Positions 2,980 to 19,057 of a stretch of 64,000 nt of DNA are shown piece by piece (position 1 is the stretch's first letter; every line of letters begins with the position of its first letter). This DNA comes from an uncultured Acidimicrobiia bacterium (GTDB taxonomy: Bacteria; Actinomycetota; Acidimicrobiia; Acidimicrobiales; AC-14): NCBI GenBank assembly GCA_963836205.1, contig CAWIIV010000006.1, positions 32,001 through 96,000 of the forward strand. The letters are read 5' to 3'. A program made the translations under genes and the position numbers. The notes under the pieces were generated by a model. The model was not told the origin of the DNA and ran no database searches. It saw only the letters and a list, made by a program, of their open reading frames with translations.

Positions 2980-2999
2980 CCGCGCAGCCGGTCAGCCGC

Positions 3000-3843
3000 T
3001 CAGGCGGGTCCCCGCTCGCCGCACTGGACCGCCGCGTTCAGGCAGGCGGTGACGAGCCGGGCCTGGGCCGCGGGGTCCCAGGCGTTGAAGAAGTCGGCGT
3101 GGGCGGTCGCCGGCCCGCCGGAGCTGAGCGTGAGGTCGGCGCCGCCGACGCCGGCCGGGTAGTGGACGCCCAGGCGCAGGTGGGGCACGGCCACCGGGTG
3201 GGTGGCGGGGCAGGCGCCGCGAGCCGCGTAGGCCATGTGGCTGCGGTGGTCGGAGCTGTCGAGGCGCTGTCCGTCCCAACAGTCGGGGAAGTGGACCCGC
3301 ATGACCCGGTGGAGGCCGGACGGGCAGTCGGGCGGGGTCGTGGCCTCGGGGGTCTGGCGGCCGCCGCCGATGCAGGCGAAACGAACCACGTGGGCGGCGG
3401 CGTCGGTGACCACCCGCAGTCCGAGGGGGAAGGGCTGGATGGAGGCGGGGTCGCGCCCGGCCACCAGGTAGTAGGCGAGGACGTTGGTGGGTTTCACTGG
3501 GTCGCCGCCGTCGGCCGCTGACGGGACCCAATAGGCGGCGTGGTCGCCGTCGCGGCGGCAGAGGTCGGGCCCGGCCTGGAGCGACTCGGTGGTCGAGAAG
3601 GCGTCGGTCGACGTGTTGCCGAAGAAGTCGTGGCCGTGGGACGCACCCGGGCTGGCCGGGATGGACGATGGGGTCGTCGGGCGCGGAGTGGCTGTACCGG
3701 CACACGCTGACGAAATTGCCGGCGGGACGGGGCTTGGGCGCCGCCGCCGCCGCGGCCGGGCCGGCGACGGCGAGGGCGGCGACGGCGAGGGAGAGGGCGG
3801 CGAGGGCGGCGGCCGCGGCCAGGGCGGTGCGGGCGGGTCTCAT
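3000..3843 (-). CDS. Secreted DUF1996 domain protein (one frameshift near 3650)
   Basis: Signal peptide; 'CRYSHSAPDDPIVHPG', 'SHGHDFFGN', 'AYWVP', 'FPDCWDG', 'HADFFNAW' spread over two frames. Confidence 0.85.
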
Positions 3844-3864
3844 GGCGGTGATGGTCCGACCTGG

Positions 3865-3897
3865 ATGTGAGGAGGCTGTGAGGAGTCGGTGAGGATG
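3865..3897 (-). promoter_or_regulatory. Three 11-bp-spaced direct repeats, an OmpR/PhoB-type box
   Basis: GTGAGGA at 3867, 3878 and 3889; the minus strand reads TCACAGC-N4-TCACATC just upstream of the DUF1996 start. Confidence 0.55.
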
Positions 3898-3956
3898 CTG
3901 CGGTGCGGCGGGGCCGGTGGTTGCCGCCCGAGTGCCCTATCTCTTACCCTATGTAG

Positions 3957-4863
3957 GTGCAGATGCGGAAGACGAGCGTCTACCTGCCCGACGGGTTGAA
4001 GGTCCGGCTGGCCGACGTGGCCCGGCGGACGGGACGGTCGGAGGCCCAGCTGGTGCGACTGGCCGTCGAGCGGCTGGTGGCGTCGGAGCCGGCCGCGTCC
4101 CCTCGGCCTCGGCCTCGGTGCCCGGGAGGACCCGGTCGTCGCCCGCAACCGCCCCGGCCCGGCGTTGGTGGGGGTGGGGATGGGTCCCGGCGACCCGGGG
4201 CTCGTCACGACCCGCGCCCTGGCCGCCCTGCGGGCGGCCGACCGGGTGTTGGCGCCGACCACGTCGGCCTCGGCGGTGGGGCGGGCGGAGGCCATCGTCC
4301 GGGAAGCCGTCCCGGAGGTGGTGGTGGAGCGGGTGGTGTTCGTGATGGCGACCGACGGTGCGGCCCGGGCCGGGGCCCTCGCCGCCGTCGCCGACCGGGT
4401 GGTGGCGCTGCTCGACGTGGGCGAGCGGGTGGTGTTCGTCACCCTTGGTGACCCCAACGTGTACAGCACGTTCTCCTCGGTGGCGGCATCGGTGCGGGAG
4501 CGACGCCCGTCGGTGCCGATCGAGTCCATCCCCGGGATCATGGCCTTCCAGGACCTGGCCGCCCGCTCGGGGACCGTCCTGGTCGACGGCGACGAGCGCC
4601 TGGTGCTGGTGCCCGCCCACCGGGGCGACGGGGCGGAGGCGGTAGCCGCGGCCGCGGCCGATTCGCGATCGGCGGTGGTGGTCTACAAGGGCGGCTCCCG
4701 CCTGCCCGAGCTGGCGGCCGCCCTGGCCGCCGCCGGTCGGCTCGAGGGGGCCGTGGTCGGTGAGCTCCTCGGGCTGCCCGGGGGGCGGGTGGCGGCAGTG
4801 GCCGACGTGGCCGACCGTCCCGCGACCTACCTGGCCACCCTCGTGGTGCCGCCGGTCCGATGA
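3957..4863 (+). CDS. cbiL: CopG/RHH domain plus precorrin-2 C20-methyltransferase (CobI/CbiL); apparent fusion with a frameshift near 4100-4120
   Basis: N-terminal 'MRKTSVYLPDGLKVRLADVARRTGRSEAQLVRLAVERL' has no nearby stop; the next frame gives 'LVGVGMGPGDPGLVT..', 'TLGDPNVYSTF', 'IPGIMAF' and 'VVYKGG'. Confidence 0.8.
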
Positions 4864-5663
4864 TCTCGTTCGTGGGCGCCGGCCCCGGTGCGCCCGACCT
4901 GCTGACCCTGCGGGGCGCCGACCGTTTGTCACGGGCCGACATCGTGGTGTGGGCGTCGTCGCTGGTGCCGGAGGAGATGCTCGTGCACGTGGCCGCCGAC
5001 GCGGTGATCCACGACTCGGCCGGGATGACCTTCGAGGACGTGGTGGCGGTGTACTCGTCGGTGCCCGACTCGGCCCGGGTGGTGCGCCTGCACTCGGGCG
5101 ACGTGGCCCTGTACTCGGCGGTGCAGGAGCAGGTCGACTGGTGCGTCGCCGCGGGCCGGGAGCTCGAGATCGTCCCCGGGGTGGGTTCGCTGGCCGCGGC
5201 GGCGGCGTTGCTGGGACGGGAGCTCACCGTCCCCGGCGTGGCCCAGTCGGTGGTGTCCACCCGCCTGCCAGGGCGGACGGCGGCGTCGATGCCGCAGGGG
5301 GAGACGGTGGCCGCCTTCGCCTCCCACCGCACGACGATGGCCGTGTTCCTGTCGGCCGCCCGCCCGGCGCAGTTGGTCGACGAGCTGCTCGACGGCGGCC
5401 GGGGCTACCCGCCGGACACGCCGGCCGCGTTCGTCGTGCGGGCGTCGTGGCCCGACGAGCGGGTGGTGCTCACCACCGTCGGCGGGTTGGCCGACGCCAT
5501 GGCCGCCGACGGCGCCCGCACCGCCGCCCTCGTCCTGGTCGGACCCGCCCTGGCCGGTGCCGCCCCCCGCTGCCACCTCTACGACCCCGCCTACGCCCAC
5601 GGCTACCGCCGCCGCTCGCTCCCCGGCACCACGACCGGCCGCCCCACCGGCGCCACCCCGTGA
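4860..5663 (+). CDS. cobM: Precorrin-4 C11-methyltransferase (CobM/CbiF)
   Basis: 'FVGAGPGAPDLLTLRG', 'VRLHSGD..LYSAVQEQ', 'RELTVPGVAQSV', 'RASWPDE', 'LYDP.Y.HGYR'. Confidence 0.93.
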   Translation: MISFVGAGPGAPDLLTLRGADRLSRADIVVWASSLVPEEMLVHVAADAVIHDSAGMTFEDVVAVYSSVPDSARVVRLHSGDVALYSAVQEQVDWCVAAGRELEIVPGVGSLAAAAALLGRELTVPGVAQSVVSTRLPGRTAASMPQGETVAAFASHRTTMAVFLSAARPAQLVDELLDGGRGYPPDTPAAFVVRASWPDERVVLTTVGGLADAMAADGARTAALVLVGPALAGAAPRCHLYDPAYAHGYRRRSLPGTTTGRPTGATP

Positions 5664-6302
5664 ACCGCTCCCGGCCCGGCGAACTGGTGACACAAACGGG
5701 GTCCCCGGCCACCGAAAACGTCACCGGTTCGGGATCGGGGGACGGTTCGATCAGCCTTGTCGGGGGTGGGCCGGGGGACCCCGACCTGCTCACCCTGCGG
5801 GCGGAGCTGCTCCTGGCGGGGGCGACGACGGTCGTGGTCGACGTCGGCGTCGGCCACCTGGCCGCCGCCTTCGCCCCCGGCGCCGCCATCGTGGCCGTGC
5901 CCGACCGGCAGGCCGGCCGTCGACGCCCTCCTCGCCGCCACCGCCCACCCGCCCGTGGTGCGTCTCTACCCGGGCGACCCGTGGCTGCACCCGGCCCACG
6001 GTTCCGAGGCGGCGGCTCTCGACGCCGCCGGCATCCGGTTCGAGGCGGTGCCCGGGGTGGCCACCGAGCTGGCGCTGCCGGCGATGGCGGGCATCGCCGT
6101 CCACGTCCGCCACCTGGCCGTCGTCTGCACCATCGCCGACTTCGACGACGCCCCGCCCACCACCGACCCCGCCCGCACGCTCGTCCTCGTGGCCGACGAC
6201 CTCGCCGCGGCGACCGCCGCCAGTGACCCGGCCGCCCGCACCCTGCCGTGCGTCGCGGGCACCGGCGGCGGACTCGTCGTGTCCGGGGCGGTCGTGCCGT
6301 GA
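5660..6302 (+). CDS. Divergent, truncated tetrapyrrole (SUMT-like) methyltransferase (frameshift near 5915)
   Basis: 'LVGGGPGDPDLLTLRA', then 'VVRLYPGDP..FEAVPGV'; both ends are coupled to the neighbours by GTGA overlaps. Confidence 0.65.
5681..5730. repeat. REP-like palindromic element inside the 5' end of the methyltransferase ORF
   Basis: GAACTGGTGAC ... GTCACCGGTTC, an 11-bp inverted repeat with one mismatch. Confidence 0.45.
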
Positions 6303-7404
6303 ACGGCACCGTCGACCCCCCCTCGCGCCCGAGGTGGCCGACGCCAAGGGCGGCCTCCGCACCGGGTGGACGACGGGGACGTGCGCCGGCGCGGCGGCCA
6401 AGGCGGCCCTCGTCGGGTTGGTCACCGGCTCCGCTCCCACCGAGGTCGACGTCGGCCTTCCCGACGGGCGGCGGGTCACGTTCCCGGTCGAGTCGGACGG
6501 CGCGGCCAACCGGTGCGTCGTGGTCAAGGACGCCGGCGACGACCCCGACTGCACCCACGGCGCCCGCATGACCGCCACCGTCGAATGGGCGGACCCAACG
6601 GCCACGACGACACCCGCCGAGCTCCGGGCCGGACCGGGCGTCGGCACCGTCACCCGTCCCGGCCTGGGCATTCCCGTCGGCCGGCCGTCGATCACCGACG
6701 TCCCCCGCCGCATGATCCGCCGGGCCCTGGCCGAGGTCGACCCCCGGTCGGTCGTGGTCACGTTCGAGGTCCCGGGGGGCGAGGACATGGCGGCCAGGAC
6801 GTCGAACGGACGACTCGGCATCGTCGGCGGCATCTCCATCCTGGGCACCACCGGCGTGGTGAAGCCGTTCTCCACCGCCGCCTACCGGGCGTCGGTCGTC
6901 CAGCAGATCGACGTGGCCGCGGCCCAGGGGGCGGACACCATCGTCCTCGCCACCGGTACCCGCTCCGACGCCTACGCCCAGCTCGCCCTCCCCCACCTGC
7001 CCGAGGTGTGCTTCGTCGAGGTGGGCGACTTCACCGGCATCGCCCTCCGGCGGGCGGCGGCGGCCGGCATCGGCCACGTGACGTGGGTGGGCATGGTGGG
7101 CAAGATCACCAAGCTGGCCGCGGGCGTGATGATGACCCACTTCCGCCGGACCAAGGTCGACACCGGGCTGCTGGCCGAGGTGGCGGTCGAGGCCGGGGCG
7201 CCCCCCGAGGTGGCCGACGCCGCCACCCACACCAACACCGCCCGCCACTTCTACGAGGTGTGCGTCGAGCACGGCGCGGTCGAACCGTTGCGCCTGCTGT
7301 GCCGGCGAGCGGCGGTCAACTGCCGGGCCCACGTCGACGGCGCCCTCTCGGTCGACGTGGTGTGCGTGGACTTCGACGGCACCCGGGAGGTCGCCCGTGG
7401 CTGA
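6299..7404 (+). CDS. cbiD: Cobalt-precorrin-5B C1-methyltransferase (frameshift in the C-run near 6320)
   Basis: 'LRTGWTTGTCAGAAAKAA', 'VVKDAGDDPDCTHGA', 'GVGTVTRPGL', 'RLGIVGGISILGTTGVVKPFS'. Confidence 0.93.
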
Positions 7405-9643
7405 CGACGCCCCGGTCGTGGTGGTCGGACTCCTCGGCGGACGTCCGGTCGGCGACGCCGCCGCCGCCGCCCTCCGCGCCGCCACTCTTGTCGCCGGGGG
7501 ACGGGACCAGCTCGCGGCGGTGGCCGACCTCCTCGCTCCCGGCGCCCGCACCGTCGTGGTCGGGGCGGGACTGGGCGCCCTCGACGACGTGGCCGCCGAC
7601 CCCGGCCCCGCGTGCGTCCTGGCCTCGGGCGACCCCGGCTTCTTCGGCGTGGTCCGTGCCCTCAACGCCCGAATCGGCGACCGCCTCGTCGTCCACCCCG
7701 CGCCCTCGTCGGTCGCCCTCGCCTTCGCCCGCCTGGGCCTGCCGTGGGACACCGCCGTCGTCCGCTCGTGCCACACCGGCGACGCGGCCCGCGTGGCGGC
7801 CGAGGTCGCCCGGGCCGAGGTGGCCGCGGTCCTCACCGGCCCCGACGCCCCCCCGGAGGCGGTCGGCGCCGCCCTCGTCGCCCTCGGCGCCCACCACCGG
7901 TTGGTCGTGGTGGCCACCCGCCTGGGCGAGCCGGGGGAGCTGGTCACCCGCTGTACCGACCTGGCCGACCTGGCCGCCGGCCGCTTCGACCACCGATCGG
8001 TGGTGGTGCTCGGCCACCCGAGCACGCCGAAGTCGGCGGCCCTCGGCGGACGCCCGGCGGCCGCCTTCGCCCACCGGGCGTCGATGATCACCAAGCCCGA
8101 GGTGCGGTCGGTGGTGCTGGGCAAGCTCGACCTGCCCGCCCATGGCGTGTTGTGGGACGTCGGCGCCGGCAGCGGGAGCGTCGCCATCGAGGCCGCCCTG
8201 GCCGCCCCCGGGTTGCGAGTGGTGGCGGTGGAACGGAATCACGACGACGCCGAGCGGGTGCTGGCCAACGCGGCTGTCCTCGGCGCCCTGGTGGACGTGT
8301 TCGAAGGCGCCGCCCCTGCCGTCCTCGAGCGGCTGCCCCCGCCCGACCGGGTCTTCGTCGGGGGAGGCGGGCTCGACGTGCTCGACGCGTGCCTGGCCGC
8401 CCTCCGCCCGGGCGGCCGGCTGGTGGCCACCTTCGCGGCCGTCGACCGGGCCGCGGCCGCCCACCGCCGGCTCGGCAACCTGGTGCAGGTGGGCGTCGAC
8501 CGGGCCGAAGTCCTCCCTGACGGCGGAATTCGCTTCGTGGCCGACAACCCGGTGTTCGTGGCCTGGGGCGACGCGCCCGCGGCGGCGATCGCGGCTGTCG
8601 TTCGGCGGGTCGTCGTCGGGATCGGCTGCTCGTCCGGCGCCACTGCCGACGAGGTGTCGATCGTGGTCCGCGAGGCCCTGGCCGCGGCCGGCGAGCACGC
8701 GGCCGACGCCTACGCCACCATCGACGTCCGGGCCGGCCACCCCGCCCTGCCGACTTCGACCCAGCCGTTCCCGCCCTCGCTCCTGGGACTGGTCGACGTC
8801 CCCAACCCGAGCGCGGCGGTCGATGACGCGGTCGGCACGCCCAGCGTGGCCGAGGCGGCCGCCCTCCTCGCCGCCGGGCCCGGCGCCCGCCTCACCGTCG
8901 CCAAGCGCAAGGGCGCCACCGCCACCGCCGCGGTGGCCGTGGGGACGGGCGGGACGGGCGGGACGGGCTCCGTCCACGTGGTCGGACTCGGACCGGGCGG
9001 TGCCGTCCACCGCACCCCGGCCGCCATCGCCGCCGTCCGCCACGCCGACGCGGTGGTCGGTTACCGGCCGTACGTCGATGCCGTCGACAGCCTCCTCCGT
9101 CCCGACCAGCTCGTCCTCCGGGGGACGATGGGAGCGGAGGACGAGCGGGCCCGGGCCGCCCTCACCCTGGCCCGGTGCGGGTGGCGGGTGGCCCTGGTGT
9201 CGTCGGGCGACGCCGGGGTGTTCGCCATGGGCGCCCGCACCCTGGCCCTGGCCGCCGGGGGCGCAGATGTCGAGGTCCACCTGGTCCCGGGGGTGACTGC
9301 GGCCCACGCCGCGGCCGCCGCGGCCGGCACTCCCCTCGGCACCGCCCACGCCCTCGTCACCCTGTCCGACCTGCACCTTCCGTGGGCGACGATCGAGGCT
9401 CAGCTACGGGCGGCGGCCTCGTCGGGGATGGCCCTGGCCCTCTACAACCCCCGGTCCGCCGGCCGTCCCGACAACCTGGCCCGGGCACGGGAGGTCCTCC
9501 TCGACGTGCTCTTCCCGTCGACGCCGGTGGTGGTCGTCACCGACGCCACCGGTCCCGACGAGTCGGTCGTCCACACCACCCTCGCTACCCTCGACCCCAC
9601 CGACGCCGGCATGCGTTCGATGGTCCTGGTCGCCGGCCGGTGA
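7397..9643 (+). CDS. Fusion CbiE-CbiT-CbiG(C-terminal)-CbiH/CobJ
   Basis: CbiE 'ASGDPGFFG'; CbiT 'MITKPEVR..WDVGAGSGSVAIE'; CbiG_C 'VVGIGC..VGTPSVAEAAAL'; CobJ 'VGLGPG..SSGDAGVFAMG..LSDL..PW..LYNPRS'. Confidence 0.88.
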   Translation: MADDAPVVVVGLLGGRPVGDAAAAALRAATLVAGGRDQLAAVADLLAPGARTVVVGAGLGALDDVAADPGPACVLASGDPGFFGVVRALNARIGDRLVVHPAPSSVALAFARLGLPWDTAVVRSCHTGDAARVAAEVARAEVAAVLTGPDAPPEAVGAALVALGAHHRLVVVATRLGEPGELVTRCTDLADLAAGRFDHRSVVVLGHPSTPKSAALGGRPAAAFAHRASMITKPEVRSVVLGKLDLPAHGVLWDVGAGSGSVAIEAALAAPGLRVVAVERNHDDAERVLANAAVLGALVDVFEGAAPAVLERLPPPDRVFVGGGGLDVLDACLAALRPGGRLVATFAAVDRAAAAHRRLGNLVQVGVDRAEVLPDGGIRFVADNPVFVAWGDAPAAAIAAVVRRVVVGIGCSSGATADEVSIVVREALAAAGEHAADAYATIDVRAGHPALPTSTQPFPPSLLGLVDVPNPSAAVDDAVGTPSVAEAAALLAAGPGARLTVAKRKGATATAAVAVGTGGTGGTGSVHVVGLGPGGAVHRTPAAIAAVRHADAVVGYRPYVDAVDSLLRPDQLVLRGTMGAEDERARAALTLARCGWRVALVSSGDAGVFAMGARTLALAAGGADVEVHLVPGVTAAHAAAAAAGTPLGTAHALVTLSDLHLPWATIEAQLRAAASSGMALALYNPRSAGRPDNLARAREVLLDVLFPSTPVVVVTDATGPDESVVHTTLATLDPTDAGMRSMVLVAGR

Positions 9644-9822
9644 TCGACACCGTCCGCATCACCGACGCCTGCACCGCCTGCGGGGCGTGCCTGGCGACGT
9701 GCCCGGAGCGGGCCCTGCGGCGGGCGCCCCGCAAGCCGGCCGTGGTCGACGACCTGTGCACCGCCTGTTGGGACTGCGTCGGCATCTGCCCCGCGGGCGC
9801 CATCGTGGAGGCAGCCCGGTGA
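9640..9822 (+). CDS. 2x[4Fe-4S] ferredoxin
   Basis: CTACGACLATCP and CTACWDCVGICP motifs; 60 aa; coupled at both ends. Confidence 0.88.
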   Translation: MIDTVRITDACTACGACLATCPERALRRAPRKPAVVDDLCTACWDCVGICPAGAIVEAAR

Positions 9823-10427
9823 CCGTCCACCCCATCGAGGCCGAGTCGTACCGGATCCTCGCCGAGCGGGTCGACCTCACCCGCTGGCCGCCGGCGGCGG
9901 CGGCGGTGGTGGCGCGGGTGATCCACGCCGCGGCCGACGTCACCTACGCCGACACCCTCGTGGTCGACGAGGACGCCTGCCTGGCGGGCATCGCCGCCCT
10001 CCGGGCGGGGTCGCCGGTGGTCGCCGACGTGGAGATGGTGCGGGTCGCCACCCGCCGGGCCGGTACCCGTTGCCTCCTCGACGATGGTCGGGCCTTCGCC
10101 GCGGCCCATCCCGAAGCCGGCCTCACCGCTTCGGCCGCGGCCATGCGGGTGGCGGCCGAGCGGTGGCCGGAGGGGGCGGTCGTGGTCGTCGGCAACGCGC
10201 CCACCGTCCTCTTGGAGGTCGTACGCCTGGCCCAGGCGGGGGACTTCCGGCCCGCGCTGGTGATCGGCCTCCCGGTCGGGTTCGTGGGCGCGGCCGACGC
10301 CAAAGCTGCCCTGCGGGCCTCGGGACTCCTGTCGGTGAGCAACGTGGGCGAGCGGGGCGGGAGCGCGGTGGCGGCCGCCGCTCTCAACGCCCTGTGGCGG
10401 CTGGCCACGGCGGAGGCCGACCGATGA
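9819..10427 (+). CDS. cobH: Precorrin-8X methylmutase (CobH/CbiC)
   Basis: 'HPIEAESYRIL', 'RVIHA', 'VGNAPT', 'GLPVGFVGAA.AK', 'GGSAVAAAA.NAL'. Confidence 0.93.
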   Translation: MTVHPIEAESYRILAERVDLTRWPPAAAAVVARVIHAAADVTYADTLVVDEDACLAGIAALRAGSPVVADVEMVRVATRRAGTRCLLDDGRAFAAAHPEAGLTASAAAMRVAAERWPEGAVVVVGNAPTVLLEVVRLAQAGDFRPALVIGLPVGFVGAADAKAALRASGLLSVSNVGERGGSAVAAAALNALWRLATAEADR

Positions 10428-11122
10428 GTCCGCCCACCGTCCACCTGGTGGGCGGCGGCCCCGGCGACCCCTTGCTCCTCACCCGGCGGGCCGCCCGCCT
10501 CCTGTCTGAGGCCGACGTGGTCGTGGTCGATCGCCGCTCGCTCGACGCCATCGTCGCCCTCGCCCCACCGGCCGCCGAGCGCGTCTTCGTCGGTCGGGCC
10601 GACGGGCATCCCGCCTGGGACACCGACGCCGTCGCCGACCTCCTCGCCCACCGGGCCCGCACCCACCCGACCGGCACCGTCGTCCGCCTCAAGAGCGGCG
10701 ACCCCTTCGTGTGCTCCCGGGGAGGCGAGGAGATGGCCGCCCTGGTCGAGCGGGGCATCCATGTCGAGGTCACGCCGGGCGTCTCGGCCGCCACCGCCGC
10801 CCCCCTGGCCGCCGGCATGCGCCGCGGCCGCACCGTCACCATCCTCGCCGGCAACTCCGACCCCGTGTACCCCGACGTCGACCTCGGCGCCCTCGCCGAC
10901 CCCGACGCATCCCTCGTCGTCCTCGTCGGGCGGTCACGGCAGCAGCACCTGGCCGACGCCCTGATGGCGGCCGGGCTCGACCGCACCACCCCCGCGGCCG
11001 TCGTCCACGCCGCCACTCGCCCCGGTGCTCGCGTTGTCCACACCACTCTCGAACGCCTTGGCGACCACCGCCTCCCCCCGCCCGCCACCGTCGTGATCGG
11101 CCCCGCCCGTGCACATCCCTGA
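10424..11122 (+). CDS. cobA: Uroporphyrinogen-III C-methyltransferase
   Basis: 'VHLVGGGPGDPLLLT', 'VVRLKSGDPFV.SRGGEE', 'PGVSAA', 'PPATVVIG'. Confidence 0.88.
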   Translation: MSPPTVHLVGGGPGDPLLLTRRAARLLSEADVVVVDRRSLDAIVALAPPAAERVFVGRADGHPAWDTDAVADLLAHRARTHPTGTVVRLKSGDPFVCSRGGEEMAALVERGIHVEVTPGVSAATAAPLAAGMRRGRTVTILAGNSDPVYPDVDLGALADPDASLVVLVGRSRQQHLADALMAAGLDRTTPAAVVHAATRPGARVVHTTLERLGDHRLPPPATVVIGPARAHP

Positions 11123-11732
11123 CGGCTGGATCGACCTGCCCACGTCGGCCGCAGCCGCTGCCATAGCGGCCGCGGCCGTCACCGTCTCCGCCCGCCGGGC
11201 CAAGGTCGGCCTCCAGCAGAAGGCCACCACCACGCCCGCCGTGGTGGCCGCCTACCTGCTGGTGGCCGAGCTCCTCGTCGTCCCCCTCGGGGTCGGCACG
11301 GGCGCCCACCTCGTCGGCACCGGCCTGGCCGCGGTCCTGGTCGGACCCGAGCTGGCCATCGTGTGCGTCACCGTCGTGGTCCTCGTCCAGGCCCTGGTGC
11401 TGGCCGACGGGGGGGTCACCGCCATCGGCCTCAACGTGGTCAACAACGGCGTGGTGCCCGCCCTCGTGGCGTGGACGCTCTTCCGGGCCCTGACGACCGC
11501 CCGCGCCTCCCGGCCCATGGCCGCGGGGATCGCCGCCGGCCTGGCCACTCTCGCCGCCGGGGCCGCGGCGGCCGTCGAGTTCACCATCGGCGGCACCGAC
11601 GTGATCCCGGCCCGGGCCGTCGCCGCTGCCCTGGGCGCGGGGCACCTGGTCGTGGCCGTCGTCGAAGGGGTCCTCACCGCCCTCGTGGTCCGGGTGGTCT
11701 ACCGGCTCAGGCCAGACCTGGTGAAGGTATGA
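11109..11732 (+). CDS. cbiM: ECF cobalt transporter S component
   Basis: N-terminal MHIPDG metal-binding motif, 'GTGAHLVG', 'QALVLADGG'; multi-TM. Confidence 0.9.
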   Translation: MHIPDGWIDLPTSAAAAAIAAAAVTVSARRAKVGLQQKATTTPAVVAAYLLVAELLVVPLGVGTGAHLVGTGLAAVLVGPELAIVCVTVVVLVQALVLADGGVTAIGLNVVNNGVVPALVAWTLFRALTTARASRPMAAGIAAGLATLAAGAAAAVEFTIGGTDVIPARAVAAALGAGHLVVAVVEGVLTALVVRVVYRLRPDLVKV

Positions 11733-12670
11733 GCCGAACCCACGGCACCACGCTGCCGGCCACACCGACACGCACCCCGCTCACCGCCCTCGCCCCCGAG
11801 GCCAAGCTGGTGGGACTGGTCGCCTTCCTGGGGGCGGTGGCGACCACTCCCCCGTCCCGCCCGTGGGCCCTCGCCGGGCAGGCTGGGATCGCGGTGGCGG
11901 TGGCCGTCGCCGCGCTCGTGCGGCCCCGGGCTGTCGTCCGCCGGCTGGTGATCGACCTGCCCCTGGCGGTGCTGGCCGTCACCGTCGCCGTCGCCGCCTC
12001 GGGACCGAGAGTCCACGTGGCCGGCATCAGCCTCTCCCGGGCCGGTCTCCAGGTCGGCCTGGCCCTGCTGGCCAAGGCCACCGTCGGCATCGTCGCCGTC
12101 TCGGCGGTGGCGGCCGCCACCACTGCGTCCGAGACCGTCGCCGGACTCCGCCGCCTGCGCCTGCCCGCCTGGATCTGCGACCTGGTGGCCCTCACCGCCC
12201 GCCAGCTCCAGGTCCTCGGCGACGAGCTGGCCCGGCTCCGGCTGGCGGGGTCGGTCCGGGCCGGAAACCGGGGCCGGCGGGGCGAGTGGTCGGCCGTGGC
12301 CCGGTCGCTGGGCGTCCTCTTCGTCCGCAGCGTCGAGCGGGCCGACCGCCTCGAAATCGCCCTCGCCGCCCGCGGCGGCCCCCCGTCGGCCGCGGTCAAC
12401 CACTCCACCCCGTCGTCGACGACGGCGGGTGGGGCCCCTCACGCCGCCGCCGTGGCCCCGGACACCCGCGCCACCGCCACGCCCGACCACCCGGCCACGG
12501 GCGCCTCCCACCGCGTCACCGCGAACGGCGCAACCACCTGGGGCGACGCCGCCCCGACCGACGACCCCGCTTCCACGGCCACGGCCACCCCGTCGACGAC
12601 GACGGCCGGCGGGTGGATCCCCGCGCTTCTCCCCGCGGCGGCCGCCCTCGTCCTCCGGATCGCGGCATGA
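11729..12670 (+). CDS. cbiQ: ECF cobalt transporter T component, with a Thr/Ala/Pro-rich insertion
   Basis: 'PEAKL', 'GLRRLRLP', 'LFVRSVERADRLEIALAARG'. Confidence 0.85.
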   Translation: MSRTHGTTLPATPTRTPLTALAPEAKLVGLVAFLGAVATTPPSRPWALAGQAGIAVAVAVAALVRPRAVVRRLVIDLPLAVLAVTVAVAASGPRVHVAGISLSRAGLQVGLALLAKATVGIVAVSAVAAATTASETVAGLRRLRLPAWICDLVALTARQLQVLGDELARLRLAGSVRAGNRGRRGEWSAVARSLGVLFVRSVERADRLEIALAARGGPPSAAVNHSTPSSTTAGGAPHAAAVAPDTRATATPDHPATGASHRVTANGATTWGDAAPTDDPASTATATPSTTTAGGWIPALLPAAAALVLRIAA

Positions 12671-14395
12671 CCGACCTCCTCCTCGTCGGCCATGGCAGCC
12701 GCGATCCCGCGGCGGCGGAGGAGTTCACGACACTCACGGCCCTCGTCCGGGCCGCGGCCCCGCCCGACATCCGGGTCGGTGCCGGCTTCCTCGAGCTGGC
12801 CGAGCCGCATGTCGACGTCGCCCTCGACCGCCTCGTCGCCGACGGCGCCACCGACATCGCCGCGGTCCCGTACGTCCTCTTCGGCGCCGGCCATCTCAAG
12901 GACGACGGCCCCGCCATCCTCGCCCGGGCCCGCCGCCGCCACCCCGCCGTCCGCTTCCACCTCGCCCGCGACCTCGGCATCCACCCCGCCGTCCTCGACG
13001 TAACCGAGGACCGGGCCCGTTCCGCCCGCAAGCGGCTGCCGTCCACCGAGCGCACCGCCGTCGTCCTCGTCGGGCGGGGCTCCACCGACCCCGACGCCGG
13101 CGCCGACTTCGTGAAGTTCGCCCGGCTCCTCGAGGACGGACGAGGCCTCGGCCCGGTCCACCCCGCCTTCGCGGCCATGAGCCGGCCCCACCTCCACGAC
13201 GCCCTCGACCGGGCTCACAGCCTCGGCGCGGAAGCCGTCACCGTCGTCCCCCTCCTCCTGTTCCAGGGCGTCCTCGTCGAGCGGATCGTGGTCGACGCCG
13301 CCGCCTGGGCCACCGCCCACCCCGACGTGGCCGTCACCACCGCCGCCCCCCTCGGCCCCGATCCCCGCCTGGCCGACCTGGTCGTCGAGCGCCATCGGGA
13401 GGCCGTCCAGGGCGACGTCCGCATGAACTGCGACGTCTGCGCCTACCGGGTGCGGCTCCCCGGCTACGAGGAGAAGGTGGGAACGCCCCTGGTCGTCTCC
13501 CCGCCGGAGGACGAGCCCCGCGGCTGGCGGGCCCGCCGGGCCGCCAATCAGGCCGCGGCCGACGCCGCCACCCGCCGCCAGCGGCCCCGACGGGGACTCG
13601 GCCGTCGCACCGGCATCCCCCCCGCCCCCGACCGCGACGACCACCCCGCGATCCACATCGTCGGCCTGCGCCACACCTGGCCCGACGGCACCGACGCCCT
13701 CTCCGGGGTCGACCTCGACGTGGCCCAGGGCGAGCGCATCGCCGTCCTCGGCCCCAACGGGTCGGGCAAGACCACCCTCGCCCTCCACCTCATCGGCGCC
13801 CTCGGGCGGCCGACCGCGGGCGCCGTCCATGTGACCGGCCTCACCGTGGCCGACACCAACCTGGCCGAGGTCCGCCGGCGGGTCGGGCTCGTCTTCCAGG
13901 ACCCCGACGACCAGCTCCTCCTGCCCACGGTGGCCGACGACGTCGCCCTCGGCCCGGCCAACCTCGGCCTCACCGGCGACGCCCTCGCCCAGCGGGTGGC
14001 CACCGCCCTCGACGTGGTCGGCCTCACCGACGCCGCCGACCGGGCGCCGCAGCACCTCGAGCATGGGCGAGCGCCGCCGGGCCGCCCTCGCGGGAGTGCT
14101 CGCCGTCCACCCCGAGATCCTCGTCCTCGACGAACCCAGCGCCAACCTCGACCCGTCCGCCCGTCGCGACGCGGTCGAGATCGTCAAGGGCCTGAGGGGC
14201 GTGACCACCGTGGTCATCACCCACGACCTCCCCCTCGCCCTCGAGCTGTGCCCCCGCGCGGTCGTCCTCGACGGGGGACGCATCGTGGCCGACGGCCCCA
14301 CCGCCGCCCTCCTGGCCAACCCCGCCCTCATGGCCGCCCACCGCCTCGAGCTCCCCTACGGGTTCCCATTGCCGGTTAGCGGACCCGCCCGGTGA
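12667..14395 (+). CDS. cbiX: Sirohydrochlorin cobaltochelatase CbiX fused in frame to the ECF ATPase CbiO (frameshift near 14060)
   Basis: 'LLVGHGSRD', 'FLELAEP', 'GAGHLKDD', 'VGRGSTD', 'MNCDVCAYR', then without a stop 'GPNGSGKTT', 'FQDPDDQL'; after the indel 'LSMGERRR..LVLDEPSANLD..ITHDL'. Confidence 0.85.
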
Positions 14396-15306
14396 CCCAA
14401 GCCCCGATCGTCGACGTCGCCCCCCCGCCCGCGGCCCATGGCGGGGACGGCGCCCGGCTGGCGGCCGCCCTCGGCGTCGACGCCGACGACGTCCTCGACC
14501 TGTCCGCCTCCCTCAACCCGTACGCCCCCGACGTGTCCGCCCTGGCCGCCCGCCGCCTCGGCAGCCTCCGCCGGTACCCCGACCCCACCGACGCCACCGC
14601 CGCCCTCGCCCGGGCCATCGGCGTCGACACCGACCGCCTCGTCCTCACCGCCGGTGGCTCGGAGGCCATCGCCCTCGTCGCCCGCCACGTGCGAACGGGC
14701 CACGTCGAGGGACCCGAGTTCTCCCTGTACGAACGCCACCTGACCCCCGGCGAAGGCCGGTGGCGATCCAACCCGAACAACCCCCTGGGGACCCTGGCCG
14801 CCCCCGCCGACCGGGCCGCCGTCTGGGACGAAGCCTTCTGGCCCCTCGCCACCGGCACCTGGACCCGGGGCGACGCCGACCGGGGTGCCGTCGTGGTCGG
14901 CTCGCTCACCAAGGTGTTCGCCTGCCCCGGCCTCCGGGTGGGCTACGTCGTCGCCCCCATACCCAACGTGGCCGAACGCCTCCGCCGCCGGCTACCCCTC
15001 TGGAGCGTCGGCAGCCTGGCCTGTGCCCTCGTCCCCGACCTGCTCGACCGGGCCGACCTCCCCGCGTGGCACGCCGCCGTCACCGCACACCGGTCAGAGC
15101 TCGCCACCCTCATCCGCCACCACGGCTACACCGTCGCCACCGCCGATGCCCCGTGGGTCCTCGTCTCCCCCGCCGGCGACCTCCGCCCCCGCCTCGCCCG
15201 CCACGGCATCCTCCTCCGTGACTGCGCCAGCTTCGGCCTGGTCGACACCGTCCGCATCGCCCTCCCCGATGCCGCCGGCCTCGACCGCCTCGCGTCCGCC
15301 CTGTGA
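14392..15306 (+). CDS. Threonine-phosphate decarboxylase-like PLP aminotransferase (CobD/CobC type)
   Basis: 'HGG', 'DLSASLNP', 'SNPNNPLG', 'DEAF', 'SLTKVFACPGLRVGY', 'RDCASFG'. Confidence 0.85.
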   Translation: MTQAPIVDVAPPPAAHGGDGARLAAALGVDADDVLDLSASLNPYAPDVSALAARRLGSLRRYPDPTDATAALARAIGVDTDRLVLTAGGSEAIALVARHVRTGHVEGPEFSLYERHLTPGEGRWRSNPNNPLGTLAAPADRAAVWDEAFWPLATGTWTRGDADRGAVVVGSLTKVFACPGLRVGYVVAPIPNVAERLRRRLPLWSVGSLACALVPDLLDRADLPAWHAAVTAHRSELATLIRHHGYTVATADAPWVLVSPAGDLRPRLARHGILLRDCASFGLVDTVRIALPDAAGLDRLASAL

Positions 15307-16049
15307 TCGTCTTGGACGGGGTCACCCTGCGGGCGGAGATGATCGCCGCCATCCGGGCCGAGGCCCACGCCGCCTGCCTGGCCACGGTGGTCGTGGGCGA
15401 CAACCCCCGGTGCCACGCCTTCGCCCGCGACAAGCGGTCGGCGGCCATCGAGGCCGGCCTGGCCACGGCCCAGGTCGACCTGACCGGCACCGCCAGCCGA
15501 CACGAGGTGCAGGCCGCCGTCGGCCAGCTGGCCACCAACCCTGCGATCAACGGGATCTTCGTCCAGCTCCCCCTTCCGGAACACATCGACCTCGACCCCA
15601 TCGTCGAGCTCCTCCCGCCGGCCAAGGACGTCGACGGCATGCGCCCCGGGGCCCTCTACGCGCCGACCACGGCCCAGGCCGTCGTCCGCCTGCTCGATCG
15701 CTACGGGATCGCAATCGCCAGCCGGAAGGTCGTCGTGGTGGGAAACTCACCCCGCGTCGCCCACGCGATCGCCCTGCTCCTCACCCTCCGGGGCGCCGAG
15801 GTCACCACGCTCGACGACCCCCTGCCCGACGTCTGCCGCCAGGCCGACATCCTCGTCGCCGCCACCGGCCACCCCCGGACGATCACCGCCGACCACCTCC
15901 GACCGGGGGCGGCCGTGGTCGACGTCACCGGCGACGTCGACCTCGCATCAGCCAGCCGCGTCGCGGGCGCCCTTGCCCCCTACCCCACCGCCGTGGGACC
16001 GGTCGCCGTCGCCTGCCTCCTCCGCAACACCGCCGACGCCGCCCGGTAG
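15303..16049 (+). CDS. folD: FolD-like methylene-THF dehydrogenase/cyclohydrolase (divergent)
   Basis: 'LDG', 'VVGDNP', 'GIFVQLPLP', 'KDVDG', 'ADILVAATG', 'VGPVAVA.LL.N'. Confidence 0.8.
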   Translation: MIVLDGVTLRAEMIAAIRAEAHAACLATVVVGDNPRCHAFARDKRSAAIEAGLATAQVDLTGTASRHEVQAAVGQLATNPAINGIFVQLPLPEHIDLDPIVELLPPAKDVDGMRPGALYAPTTAQAVVRLLDRYGIAIASRKVVVVGNSPRVAHAIALLLTLRGAEVTTLDDPLPDVCRQADILVAATGHPRTITADHLRPGAAVVDVTGDVDLASASRVAGALAPYPTAVGPVAVACLLRNTADAAR

Positions 16050-16451
16050 CCGCGTCCACAGCGCGGCCAGGCGGGGACCGGCCCGCGACAACTCCTCCAG
16101 GTGCGCCTCGGCCAACCCGCCGAGGCGGCGCTCGCCCTCCTCGGTGAGCGCCACCCGCACCACCCGCTGGTCGCCCTCGCCGTGGAGCCGCCGCACGAGG
16201 CCCGCCTGTTCGGCCCGGTCGACGAGCTCGACCACGCTGTGGTGGCGCAGGAGGAGGTGCCCGGCCAGCTCGCTCATGCTGGGCGGCGTGGGCGGCGACA
16301 TGTGGCCGTGGCCACGCACCGCCAGCAGCAGCTGGTGGCGGGCCGGCGTCATCCCCGCGGCCCGGGCCCGGTCCTCGCTCCAGCGCAGGAAGCGCCGCAG
16401 CCCGTCCCTGAACTCCAGGAGCCGCCGGAAGTCGTCGTCGCTCAAGTCCAT
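15948..16451 (-). CDS. MarR-family regulator
   Basis: 'DFRRLLEFR..LRRFL.WSE', 'HQLLLAVRG', 'LLRHHSVVELVDR', 'DQRVVRVALT'; divergent from the ClC gene; alternative start at 16469. Confidence 0.88.
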   Translation of the reverse strand: MDLSDDDFRRLLEFRDGLRRFLRWSEDRARAAGMTPARHQLLLAVRGHGHMSPPTPPSMSELAGHLLLRHHSVVELVDRAEQAGLVRRLHGEGDQRVVRVALTEEGERRLGGLAEAHLEELSRAGPRLAALWTRLPGGVGGVAEEAGDGDRSHGGGVGGKGARDAAG

Positions 16452-16499
16452 CCCTCGCCTCAAATCCATATCGTAAGACGAGACTATCGTGAGACGATA

Positions 16500-18245
16500 A
16501 TGATTTCGACGACCCCGCCCCGCCGCCTCGCCTTCCTCACCGTGTTGGCCGCCGTCCTCGGGCTGGCCGGCGGGGCGGCGGCGTGGATCCTCCTGCACCT
16601 CATCGCCCTCATCACCAGCGTGGCCGTCTTCGGCCAGGTCGGCTTCCACCCGCCGGCCTACGCCGACCTCCACCTCGGCCCCCGGATCGTGATCGTCGCC
16701 GTCGTCGGCGCCCTTGCCGTCAGCCTGCTGGCCAAGTGGTCACCCGTGATCCGGGGCCACGGCATCCCCGAGGCCATGGAGGCCGTCCTCACCCGCCAGA
16801 GCCGCATCGCCCCCCGCACGGCCGTGGCCAAGCCCCTGTCGGCCGCCCTCGCCATCGGCACCGCGGCGCCGTTCGGGGCCGAGGGACCGATCATCGTCAC
16901 CGGCGGCGCCCTCGGGTCGCTCCTCGGCCAGGTCGTCCGGGTGTCGCCGTCGGAGCGCAAGATCCTCCTCGCCTGCGGGGCGGCGGCAGGCATGTCGGCC
17001 ACCTTCGGCGCGCCCCTCGCCTCGGTGATCCTGGCCGTCGAACTGCTCCTCTTCGAGTTCTCGGCCCGGGCGCTGGTCCCCCTGGTGGTGGCGACGAGCG
17101 TGGCCGCGGGCATGCACGACGCCCTGTTCGGGTCGGGTCCGCTGTTCGACGTCGCCGTCCACGACTTCGCCGGGCTCCGGGGCCTGCCCGCCTTCGTCAT
17201 CCTCGGCTTGGCGTGCGGCCTCCTCGCGGTGGTCGTCGTCCGGGGCCTGTTCCTGGTCGAAGGCCTCTACCGGCGCCTGCCGTTGAAGGACTTCTGGCAC
17301 CCGGTGCTCGGCGCCGTCGCCTTCGCCACCGTCGGCACGGCCGCGCCCCGCGCCCTGGGGGTCGGCTACGACGCCATCGCCGACGTCCTCCACAGCCGCC
17401 TCGCGCTGGGGACGGTGGCCGCCCTCGGCCTGGTCAAGCTGGCGGCCTGGTGGCTGGCCCTCGGCTCGGGGACGTCGGGCGGCACCCTGGCCCCCATCCT
17501 GCTGATCAGCGCCTCCTTCGGCACCGTCCTCGGCACCGGACTCGACCGGGTCCTCCCCGGTCCCGACATCGCCCCCGGCGCGTTCGCGGTCGTGGCCATG
17601 GCCGCCACGTTCGGCGCGTCCACCGGGGCCACCTTGGCCGCCATCGTCTTCGTCTTCGAGCTCACCCGCGACTACGAGGTGGTCATCCCGCTCATGCTCG
17701 CCACCGTGCTCGCCGACCTCGTCTTCGGCGCCCTCAGCGAGCACACGATCATGACCGAGAAGCTCAGCCGCCGGGGCCTGCGCGTCGGCCGCCACTACGG
17801 CGTCGACCCTTTCACCACCGCGACGGTGGACCGGATCATGACCTCGCCGGTGGCGACCCTGCCCGCCTCCGCCACCGTGGCCGCCGCCCGCCGCCGGTTC
17901 GTCGAGCCCGGTGGGCACGGTGCCTACCCCATCGTCGACGACGAGGGACGGGTGCTCGGCATCGTCGCCCGGGGCGACGTCCTGGCCGAGGGCACCGGGC
18001 CCGACTCCTCCGTCCTCGACCTCGCCAGCCGGGAGGTCGTGGCGGTGACGCCCGACGACACCGCCCAGACCGCCTGGCAGGTGATGGTCGACGAAGCCGT
18101 CGATCACGTCCCCGTCGTCGACGGCACCCGGTTGGTCGGCATCTGCACCCGTACCGACCTGCTCAAGCTGCGCCGGGCCCAATCCGACCACGAGATCCGC
18201 CAGGACGGGCTGAGACGGCGCCCATCGGCCAAGCTGGACCTGTGA
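16500..18245 (+). CDS. ClC-family anion channel/antiporter with tandem CBS domains
   Basis: 'GHGIPE', 'GAEGP', 'GTSGGTLAP', 'FELTRDY', C-terminal CBS pair. Confidence 0.9.
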   Translation: MISTTPPRRLAFLTVLAAVLGLAGGAAAWILLHLIALITSVAVFGQVGFHPPAYADLHLGPRIVIVAVVGALAVSLLAKWSPVIRGHGIPEAMEAVLTRQSRIAPRTAVAKPLSAALAIGTAAPFGAEGPIIVTGGALGSLLGQVVRVSPSERKILLACGAAAGMSATFGAPLASVILAVELLLFEFSARALVPLVVATSVAAGMHDALFGSGPLFDVAVHDFAGLRGLPAFVILGLACGLLAVVVVRGLFLVEGLYRRLPLKDFWHPVLGAVAFATVGTAAPRALGVGYDAIADVLHSRLALGTVAALGLVKLAAWWLALGSGTSGGTLAPILLISASFGTVLGTGLDRVLPGPDIAPGAFAVVAMAATFGASTGATLAAIVFVFELTRDYEVVIPLMLATVLADLVFGALSEHTIMTEKLSRRGLRVGRHYGVDPFTTATVDRIMTSPVATLPASATVAAARRRFVEPGGHGAYPIVDDEGRVLGIVARGDVLAEGTGPDSSVLDLASREVVAVTPDDTAQTAWQVMVDEAVDHVPVVDGTRLVGICTRTDLLKLRRAQSDHEIRQDGLRRRPSAKLDL

Positions 18246-19057
18246 CCTCCGGGCCCGGCGCCGACCAGCTGCTCATCCACCGCCACGTCGGCGGACGCCT
18301 GCGCCGGGTGCCCGACGAGGTGGCGGTGGAGGAGCCGCTCGAGATCCGCCTCGACGGCCACCTCGTCGCCACCACCCTGCGCACGCCCGGGAACGACCAC
18401 GAGCTGGCCGTGGGCCTCCTCCACGCCGAGGGCCTCGTCGACGGACTCGCCATCACCCGCGTCCACCACTGCTTCGACGCCAAGCACACGTCCGGCGGCT
18501 CGCCGACGGTCGAGCTCAACGTCATCACCGTCGACACCGGCGGTCGGGCGCCCGTCCCTACGCCCCGCCTCCAGACAGCCACCGCCGCCTGCGGCCTGTG
18601 CGGCTCGACCACCATCGACCAGCTCACCGCCCGCCTCCCGCCGCTGCCGCCCGCCCCCCTCCTCCCCGACGACGTGGTCCTGGCCGTCGGCGACCGGGTG
18701 CGCAGCCGCCAGGGCCTGTTCGGGGCCACCGGCGGGGTGCACGCGGCCGCCGTCTTCGACGCGACCGGCGACCCCCTCCTCATCCGGGAGGACGTCGGCC
18801 GCCACAACGCAGTCGACAAGCTGGTGGGCCGCCTCCGCCTCGACGGCCGCCTGCCCGCCACCGGCCTGGGACTGTTCGTCTCCGGGCGGGCCGGCTTCGA
18901 GCTGGTGCAGAAGGCATGGGCCGCCGGCTTCGCCTGGATGGTGGCCGTGGGCGCCCCCACCTCTCTCGCCGTCCGCACCGCCCGCACCGCCGGCCTGGTC
19001 CTGGTCGGCTTCGCCTCCGACGACCGCTTCAACCTCTACGCGCCGCAGGAACCGTGA
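18242..19057 (+). CDS. fdhD: Formate dehydrogenase accessory sulfurtransferase
   Basis: 'VEEPLEIR', 'RTPG.D.EL', 'CGLCG', 'TGGVHAA', 'EDVGRHNAVDK', 'SGRAGFELVQKA'. Confidence 0.92.
   Translation: MTSGPGADQLLIHRHVGGRLRRVPDEVAVEEPLEIRLDGHLVATTLRTPGNDHELAVGLLHAEGLVDGLAITRVHHCFDAKHTSGGSPTVELNVITVDTGGRAPVPTPRLQTATAACGLCGSTTIDQLTARLPPLPPAPLLPDDVVLAVGDRVRSRQGLFGATGGVHAAAVFDATGDPLLIREDVGRHNAVDKLVGRLRLDGRLPATGLGLFVSGRAGFELVQKAWAAGFAWMVAVGAPTSLAVRTARTAGLVLVGFASDDRFNLYAPQEP

Follow-up and report, generated by a model that had tools for sequence, protein, structure and literature searches.

A ribbon-helix-helix domain fused to the cobalamin-synthesis enzyme CbiL in uncultured Acidimicrobiales, and the promoter repeat that may be its operator

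Control by riboswitch is classically illustrated by the operons for the biosynthesis of cobalamin (vitamin B12), a pathway for which few protein regulators are known. Elsewhere in metabolism there are enzymes that repress genes of their own pathway. PutA of Escherichia coli and Salmonella, a dimeric proline dehydrogenase/pyrroline-5-carboxylate dehydrogenase of a catabolic pathway, carries an N-terminal ribbon-helix-helix (RHH) domain and represses its own regulon from short repeated sites (GTTGCA) in the control region, its control depending on association with the membrane once substrate is oxidised; among the other enzyme-repressors ('trigger enzymes'), BirA and NadR have winged-helix or helix-turn-helix domains; and MetJ and NikR are RHH repressors, the former with S-adenosylmethionine (SAM) as corepressor, neither of them an enzyme. 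To our knowledge, none of BirA, NadR, MetJ and NikR acts in B12 synthesis. In this article, we discuss the first gene of the cbi operon in a 64,000-nucleotide stretch of an uncultured Acidimicrobiia bacterium (contig CAWIIV010000006.1 of assembly GCA_963836205.1, positions 32,001 to 96,000; hereafter the window), a gene that in related genomes encodes an RHH domain and the methyltransferase CbiL as a single protein, RHH-CbiL. We consider it probable, if well short of certain, that this protein is an enzyme-repressor that represses its own operon through a tandem repeat at the promoter.

PutA appears to be the closest known analogue in logic, since it too has an N-terminal RHH domain on a metabolic enzyme and a scheme of self-repression, with the reservation that for RHH-CbiL both the binding and the signal are proposals; the two differ in that the enzymes are unrelated, the PutA pathway is catabolic, and the repeat considered here is built on CCCTAY and not on the GTTGCA of PutA. 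With BirA, NadR, MetJ and NikR the protein would share the coupling of an enzyme or ligand-binding domain to a DNA-binding domain in the service of its own pathway, and MetJ and CbiL both bind SAM. A full-text literature search, judged from abstracts, found no paper that describes a B12 enzyme with a fused RHH domain or cobalamin synthesis under an RHH regulator.

One protein in the relatives, two reading frames in the window

When 41 related genomes were searched with the CbiL frame of the window, RHH and CbiL were found in one frame, 300-308 residues long, in six of the seven genomes of the same genus, where the proteins start VQMRKTSVYLPDGLK... and run through a short linker into ...DPVVARN.PGPALVGVGMGPGD; in the seventh (G006, 66% complete) the gene lies in three frame pieces. 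In-frame fusions were also met in a genome of another genus (G016), in one of another family (G029) and in an unpublished genome (G015). An even sample of the order contains cbiL in 46 of 151 genomes, that of the window among them, and nine of the other 45 were scored as fused, meaning that the match begins at residue 1-4; together with the family of the window genome, these span eight families. In the best 120 matches from a search of 5.8 billion proteins, coverage of the 300-residue fusion is at least 97% in 118, and 91 carry PF07878 and/or PF01402 beside PF00590; they come from metagenome-assembled genomes (MAGs) of Acidimicrobiales and bear only the label 'precorrin-2 C(20)-methyltransferase', and because the databases name the methyltransferase alone, the presumed regulatory domain is invisible in current annotation. 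Among the best 150 clusters at 50% identity, 26 have matches that begin no later than residue 8, with identities as low as 42%. From the GTDB species genomes, a scan gave 80 loci, 52 of them fused and all of these in MAGs labelled Acidimicrobiales, Acidimicrobiia or Actinomycetota, and the lone complete cultured genome in that listing, an Aquihabitans, is unfused. Some of the counts in this article take in unpublished genomes (L012, L017, L018, L019, G165). On the sequences at hand, the fusion is real in the relatives and common in uncultured Acidimicrobiales, so that an enzyme and a DNA-binding type of domain are met there in one polypeptide; in the window, the gene is split.

The RHH domain makes up residues 1-45 (3957-4091, plus strand; Pfam RHH_5) and consists of a beta-strand KTSVYL, a helix A, a GRSEA turn and a helix B, named here after the usual order of the motif, in which an N-terminal beta-strand is followed by helix A, a G-x-S/T/N turn and helix B. 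With RHH_5, the window copy gives an E-value of 1.3e-4 and 22.1 bits, which is under the 26-bit cut-off; the relative L002 reaches 27.8 bits with RHH_5 and 20.7 bits with RHH_1, both above cut-off, and RHH_1 was matched by 13 of 13 N-termini of relatives. Across 27 fused proteins the domain follows the pattern KTSVYLP, LK..L...A, GRSEA, QL.R.A.ERLV, with hardly any variation in the strand K-T/S-S-V-Y-L-P, the GRSEA turn or helix B and none at K3, Y7, L8, P9, L12, K13, E27, A28, R32 and A34; the strand that contacts DNA in such domains is the most conserved part, and the linker that follows the domain varies in both length and sequence. A profile of the fused N-termini has as its closest solved match the antitoxin VapB26 (PDB 5x3t; E 7.9e-13, residues 1-37), with which it shares the strand and helix MxKT(T/S)VYLPdeLK. 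The likeness to an antitoxin ends there, for VapB26 has a tail that binds the VapC toxin encoded beside it, whereas RHH-CbiL has no toxin-binding tail, continues instead into the linker and CbiL, and is followed by cbiF; no PIN/VapC domain was met among the 17 open reading frames of the window that were scanned (2992-19054), a scan that was not aimed at PIN/VapC.

The CbiL frame of the window matches TP_methylase with an E-value of 9.3e-38 (Pfam), the intact relative L002 scores 184.5 bits with TIGR01467 (cobI_cbiL) against an equivalog cut-off of 163.25, and the early-cobalt route of the operon identifies the enzyme as CbiL by context. The C-terminal 230 residues match the solved structures 8xj3, 2qbu and 2e0k (E 1.7e-24, 1.3e-20 and 1.7e-14), which belong to the same methyltransferase fold family; those matches begin within the first 23 residues of chains of 232-259 residues, leaving no room for an N-terminal RHH domain, and in the same comparison VapB26 was the only solved chain matched by the RHH half. 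Only one CbiL match was found in the window genome, the copy at the fusion locus, which must for that reason be the working enzyme. A model of the homodimer scored 0.92, with 0.00 for the best of three controls, the mark for this score being reached by 20 of 30 proteins solved as same-chain pairs and by one of 23 solved as single chains; the runs agree in at least 85% of contacts, pLDDT (the predicted local distance difference test) is at least 84, and the modelled interface takes in RHH residues 1-42 and CbiL residues 76-229. Since RHH dimers and CbiL dimers have both been solved before, the pass may come from likeness and is not independent proof.

In the window, the RHH frame opens at GTG 3957, reads VQMRKTSVYLPDGLKVRLADVARRTGRSEAQLVRLAVERLVASEP... 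and first meets a stop at 4451, its tail after the domain being low-complexity sequence rich in proline, glycine and arginine. CbiL stands in the +1 frame, open from 4000 to 4863, which reads ...LGLGLGAREDPVVARNRPGPALVGVGMGPGDPGL... and then the full tetrapyrrole methylase; the remaining linker and the CbiL/CobI domain occupy 4102-4863 (plus strand), with the stop at 4861-4863 overlapping ATG 4860 of the next gene. Near the start of the CbiL domain, the only start codons are TTG 4165, GTG 4168, GTG 4174 and ATG 4180, and the source annotation calls a 227-residue CbiL from the last of them (P0046). The +1 move needed to join RHH and CbiL falls in the hypervariable linker (4086-4120, plus strand), which contains a CCCC run at 4099-4102 and three copies of CCTCGG. 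Aligned as DNA with six loci of the same genus, the linker is a (GGCCTC)n-like stretch in which all length differences among the relatives are multiples of three, while that of the window is one nucleotide out of step; the break is a 1-nt insertion, the shift lies between 4086 and 4102, where the CCCC run is, and a frame-switch detector based on GC content at third codon positions (GC3) puts the switch at 4100. An earlier note, made from the letters of the window alone, had read the locus in much this way, as an RHH-headed frame without a stop after the domain, a CbiL in the adjacent frame and a fusion interrupted by a single indel, and each of these statements is borne out, the fusion by a check of domain architectures that found RHH and TP_methylase in one frame in relatives. 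The same note had named a separate RHH gene in relatives as one of the findings that would undo it, and no such gene was found within about 1.2 kb in any of the 71 unfused loci. The fused gene also lies in two or three frame pieces in L025 (G111:C135) and in G006:C13, so that frame breaks in it are not unique to the window.

The promoter repeat and the place of the riboswitch

The spacer between the fused gene and its divergent neighbour is 113 bp long (3844-3956). It contains a tandem direct repeat, CCCTAT-CTCTTA-CCCTAT (3935-3952, plus strand; half-sites 3935-3940 and 3947-3952 in direct reading), a -10-like hexamer of the TANNNT type, TACCCT (3945-3950, plus strand), which ends 6 nt before GTG 3957 and overlaps the second half-site, and a near-palindrome, CCTATGTAGG, at 3948-3957 (direct reading). 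A TACCCT-like hexamer lies at the same distance from the start codon in many fused loci, a position that implies a leaderless or near-leaderless mRNA if the hexamer is, as we infer, part of the promoter; a scan with E. coli-type promoters gave no match at TACCCT and is uninformative for a high-GC actinobacterium.

The exact form CCCTAY-N4-6-CCCTAY occurs in 67 of 153 loci, all 67 of them fused, in a single copy each and 0-52 nt upstream of the RHH start; put the other way, it is present in 67 of 73 fused loci against 0 of 71 unfused ones. The period is 12 bp in 51 loci, 11 bp in 10 and 10 bp in three. From the 44 distinct instances with a 6-nt gap and 12-bp period comes a 22-nt consensus, TGCCCTAcgTcgTaCCCTAcGT, which may be written TGCCCTAYGTnnTRCCCTAYGT; this block is conserved and its flanks are not, with information near zero just upstream. 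Some loci duplicate one place (L038-L040, and several from L074 onwards that equal earlier ones), and 57 of the repeat strings are distinct. Within the window, the tandem CCCTAY-N6-CCCTAY occurs once in 64 kb, against 0 in 100 shuffled versions, and in the whole genome the exact tandem occurs four times, against five for the reversed control, which indicates no regulon beyond the cob promoter. That the repeat is conserved as DNA and not as coding sequence follows from three placements: the same-genus loci have a TAG stop between motif and GTG, in L008 the motif lies 40 nt upstream of the start, and in L028 it is inverted. In this last locus (G168, about 1394-1440, with the gene on the minus strand) there are at least three copies of the CCCTAY repeat in inverted orientation relative to the gene, and there are further ACATAGGGCCACG-like units.

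Six fused loci are without the exact repeat. Three of them (L080, L087, L139) differ by one mismatch, CCCTAG, and in the others (L009/L084 and L027) the half-sites depart from the consensus and read CCAYMC (CCACCC/CCATAC); it is only in L009/L084 and L027, among all fused loci, that the strand reads KTTVYLP instead of K[TS]SVYLP, a possible covariation of protein and DNA in what are two lineages only. The repeat argues for an autoregulatory operator and can be regarded as a putative RHH operator, an argument based on the constancy of the motif between flanks that diverge.

A second pattern in support of autoregulation comes from scans for the cobalamin riboswitch, RF00174. Across the whole window, no match to an Rfam family came up to the gathering score, and a permissive scan of the locus was empty as well. 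With permissive cmscan, none of 34 fused loci gave a match to the cobalamin riboswitch (0/10, 0/4 and 0/20 in the separate sets), whereas 27 of 63 unfused loci have one directly upstream of cbiL, on the same strand (7/10, 10/17, 1/16 and 9/20); without the unpublished genomes, 7/10 becomes 5/7 and 0/10 becomes 0/9, and L097 repeats L010 in these counts. Directly upstream of cbiL, fusion and riboswitch are thus mutually exclusive in the loci scanned, and a genome-wide riboswitch scan of the order sample agrees with the contrast, G037 excepted. The only cobalamin riboswitch detected in the window genome (G000:C6:10796-10868, or L021 1501-1573) precedes the cobalt transporter genes cbtB-cbtA, 25 kb upstream of the cbi operon and outside the window, which tells us that this organism does use B12 riboswitches, just not on the cbi operon. 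The RHH-operator pair seems to stand where relatives have a cobalamin riboswitch, in the same position upstream of cbiL and presumably with the same regulatory task; the two differ in kind, the riboswitch being an RNA that senses the end product in cis, without a counterpart in the window or in any of the 34 fused loci. Of what the earlier note had said about this region, its estimate of about 110 bp to the divergent gene, the absence of a riboswitch and the direct repeat close to the promoter all stand, the repeat having proved to be both conserved and specific to fused loci; TACCCT and CCTATGTAGG are also present as described, but the near-palindrome is conserved only in the genus and one neighbour, and what is conserved more widely is the direct repeat.

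In a quick tree of the CbiL domain, 15 of 17 fused rows fall in one group nested among riboswitch-bearing rows, and the label 'fused' needs four changes, against a mean of 15.1 when labels are shuffled, with the starred branches forcing at least two. The tree is unrooted, with L029 and several unfused rows on long branches, and because it is unrooted the order of events, riboswitch first, is something that we infer. The fused group does not follow the family boundaries of the taxonomy, a pattern that is suggestive of gene and operator having been transferred together.

The operon and the divergent gene

The rest of the operon (4860-15306, plus strand; NCBIfam matches) runs from CbiF/CobM to CobD/CobC. 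After cbiL, the order is CbiF/CobM, a TP_methylase-like gene, CbiD, a CbiE-CbiT-(CbiG part)-CbiH fusion, CbiC and CobA, followed by CbiM, CbiQ, a CbiX-type chelatase, CbiO and CobD/CobC; FolD (15303-16049) comes next. The single open frame at 7397-9643 holds CbiE, CbiT, a C-terminal piece of CbiG and CbiH in series, and is either a four-part fusion or a set of adjacent genes in one shared frame.

On the other side of the spacer lies the divergent DUF1996 gene (2992-3843, minus strand), frame-broken near 3638, with a DUF1996 match (E 6.7e-33) in the frame 3003-3839. Its start, ATG 3843 on the minus strand, sits in the other frame (2995-3936) and is followed by an N-terminal hydrophobic stretch. 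Beside this gene, at 3867-3910 of the spacer, GTGAGGAnnnn occurs three times with an 11-nt period, and GTGAGG/GTGA repeats are also visible in relatives that share the DUF1996 neighbour; these may be a leader or operator of the DUF1996 gene.

How the protein may act and what it would mean

A VapB/CopG-type RHH domain, a variable linker of about 20-30 residues and a catalytically competent CbiL, the C20 methyltransferase of the early-cobalt B12 pathway, would together make a bifunctional protein, predicted from the model to dimerise through both domains. The RHH ribbon of one dimer would read one sub-site of the tandem TRCCCTAYGT repeats, spaced with a period of 10-12 bp, and two CbiL-tethered dimers seated one helical turn apart would block RNA polymerase. 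As the repeat overlaps the -10 hexamer and ends 5-6 nt before the GTG, probably the first base of a leaderless message, RHH-CbiL bound there would repress its own operon. The least certain part, already proposed in the earlier note, is whether ligand occupancy of CbiL would tune the repression. One may tentatively imagine RHH-CbiL as a protein sensor of the B12 pathway, in which SAM or S-adenosylhomocysteine in the active site, the tetrapyrrole substrate or a corrinoid mimicking it would alter the seating of the two dimers on the repeat, so that the promoter would receive its signal on flux or end product straight from the first committed enzyme of the branch, and in which the ancestral riboswitch would have been displaced by a cassette that spread across Acidimicrobiales families together with its operator. 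If this were true, cobalamin synthesis would have its first transcription-factor enzyme, and PutA would be joined by a second class of RHH enzyme.

It is also possible, and we would put it no higher than that, that RHH-CbiL is an autorepressor of the plain kind, setting a steady operon level by its own concentration, with CbiL serving as enzyme and dimerisation scaffold and having no allosteric link to the DNA. All of the support for operator binding fits this equally, B12 sensing would remain with the organism through the cbtBA riboswitch, and the linker, being long, hypervariable and of low complexity, argues against tight allosteric coupling and so somewhat favours it; on the other hand, the fusion stands exactly where relatives have a ligand-sensing riboswitch, one would not expect an operon so costly, with more than 10 genes, to lose end-product control, and the known enzyme-repressors PutA and BirA respond to ligand, so that the displacement of an end-product sensor speaks for sensing having been retained. 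We think it quite improbable that the RHH domain does not bind DNA here at all and is a leftover antitoxin module used for dimer contact or for docking a partner, the repeat being a promoter element for RNA polymerase or some other factor. That the second half-site contains a TANNNT -10-like hexamer and that the closest solved relative is an antitoxin would suit such a role, yet a half-site period of 12 bp does not correspond to the distance of a -35 element, the repeat retains its form at 20-50 nt from the start codon and even inverted in L028, it is absent from all 71 unfused cbiL promoters, the DNA-contacting strand is the most conserved part of the domain, and what follows is cbiF and not a toxin gene. 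Chance adjacency, a separate small RHH or antitoxin gene ahead of cbiL whose open frame is an accident of high GC content, deserves a word only because off-frames do stay open for hundreds of bases in a genome of 71% GC; we give it hardly any credence, as dozens of in-frame fusions, down to 42-50% identity, refute it, and in no relative examined was a stop codon or a separate RHH gene found.

There is further the reading, which we regard as unlikely, that the frameshift in the window is real, leaving the strain with an RHH protein on its own, extended by a meaningless tail (3957-4451), and with a CbiL shortened at its N-terminus (start at 4165-4180), or with an operon in decay. The gene call of the source, a CbiL without its RHH half, agrees with this, and the break near 4100 is one of three 1-nt insertions within the cob operon, the other two, found by comparison with three relatives, lying near 5912 in the TP_methylase-like gene and at about 14057 in the ATP-binding-cassette signature of cbiO. 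Moreover, about 20 kb of housekeeping genes (rpoB, two dnaE, gyrA, two uvrA, secA and part of rpoC) are unbroken; a truncation of rpoC was considered and rejected, this gene being merely cut by the contig end. The GC3 detector, which recovers the three known breaks exactly and flags 0-3 sites per 20 kb in the loci of relatives, gives a genome-wide total of 267 (6.6 per 100 kb), no higher than in those loci, a figure that is not usable as an error rate. Against a real frameshift stands the fact that frame breaks also affect at least seven unrelated genes within the window or close to it: Pfam domains are split between frames in DUF1996 (3638), in a histidine kinase (HisKA, HATPase_c; 37244) and in an AMP-binding enzyme (54917 and 55241), and CbtA, outside the window, is also split (L021 1859-2613). 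The resulting density in unrelated genes, about one break per 8 kb, is hard to square with 4 Mb of functioning genome and matches what indel errors typically leave in assemblies of long contigs, and every same-genus relative with a whole locus is in frame; the split in the window is most likely such an assembly indel. No public sequencing run contains the stretch; the highest share of its words in any run is 0.06. Programmed +1 frameshifting was rejected, since the relatives are in frame and the linker is hypervariable.

Even with these alternatives weighed, several observations tell against RHH-CbiL as the repressor that took the place of a riboswitch. Should the split be real after all, the strain of the window would be without the fusion. 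The loci L009, L084 and L027 have no consensus half-site, although L084 looks like the same place as L009. Because the motif adjoins the start of the RHH coding sequence, the two can be inherited together, and their co-occurrence is weaker than it looks. In one fused genome, G037, a riboswitch does lie on the same strand, before cbtA and 1.4 kb upstream, and 36 of the 63 unfused loci are also without a detected riboswitch. Finally, with 15 of 17 fused CbiL sequences in one group, the relatives are not independent and the contrast may reflect one or few events.

On these comparisons, we regard it as well supported that the RHH-CbiL architecture exists, is widespread and has a DNA site of its own. 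A large, abundant and mostly uncultured lineage of soils and sediments appears to have swapped an RNA sensor for an enzyme with its own DNA-binding domain, which would provide an example of a riboswitch replaced by a protein and of the DNA-binding module of an antitoxin recruited into metabolism. The small protein-operator pair, with its precisely conserved 22-nt site, is moreover testable in vitro. For the ecology of B12, the point of interest is whether these producers still stop synthesis once B12 is available from outside.

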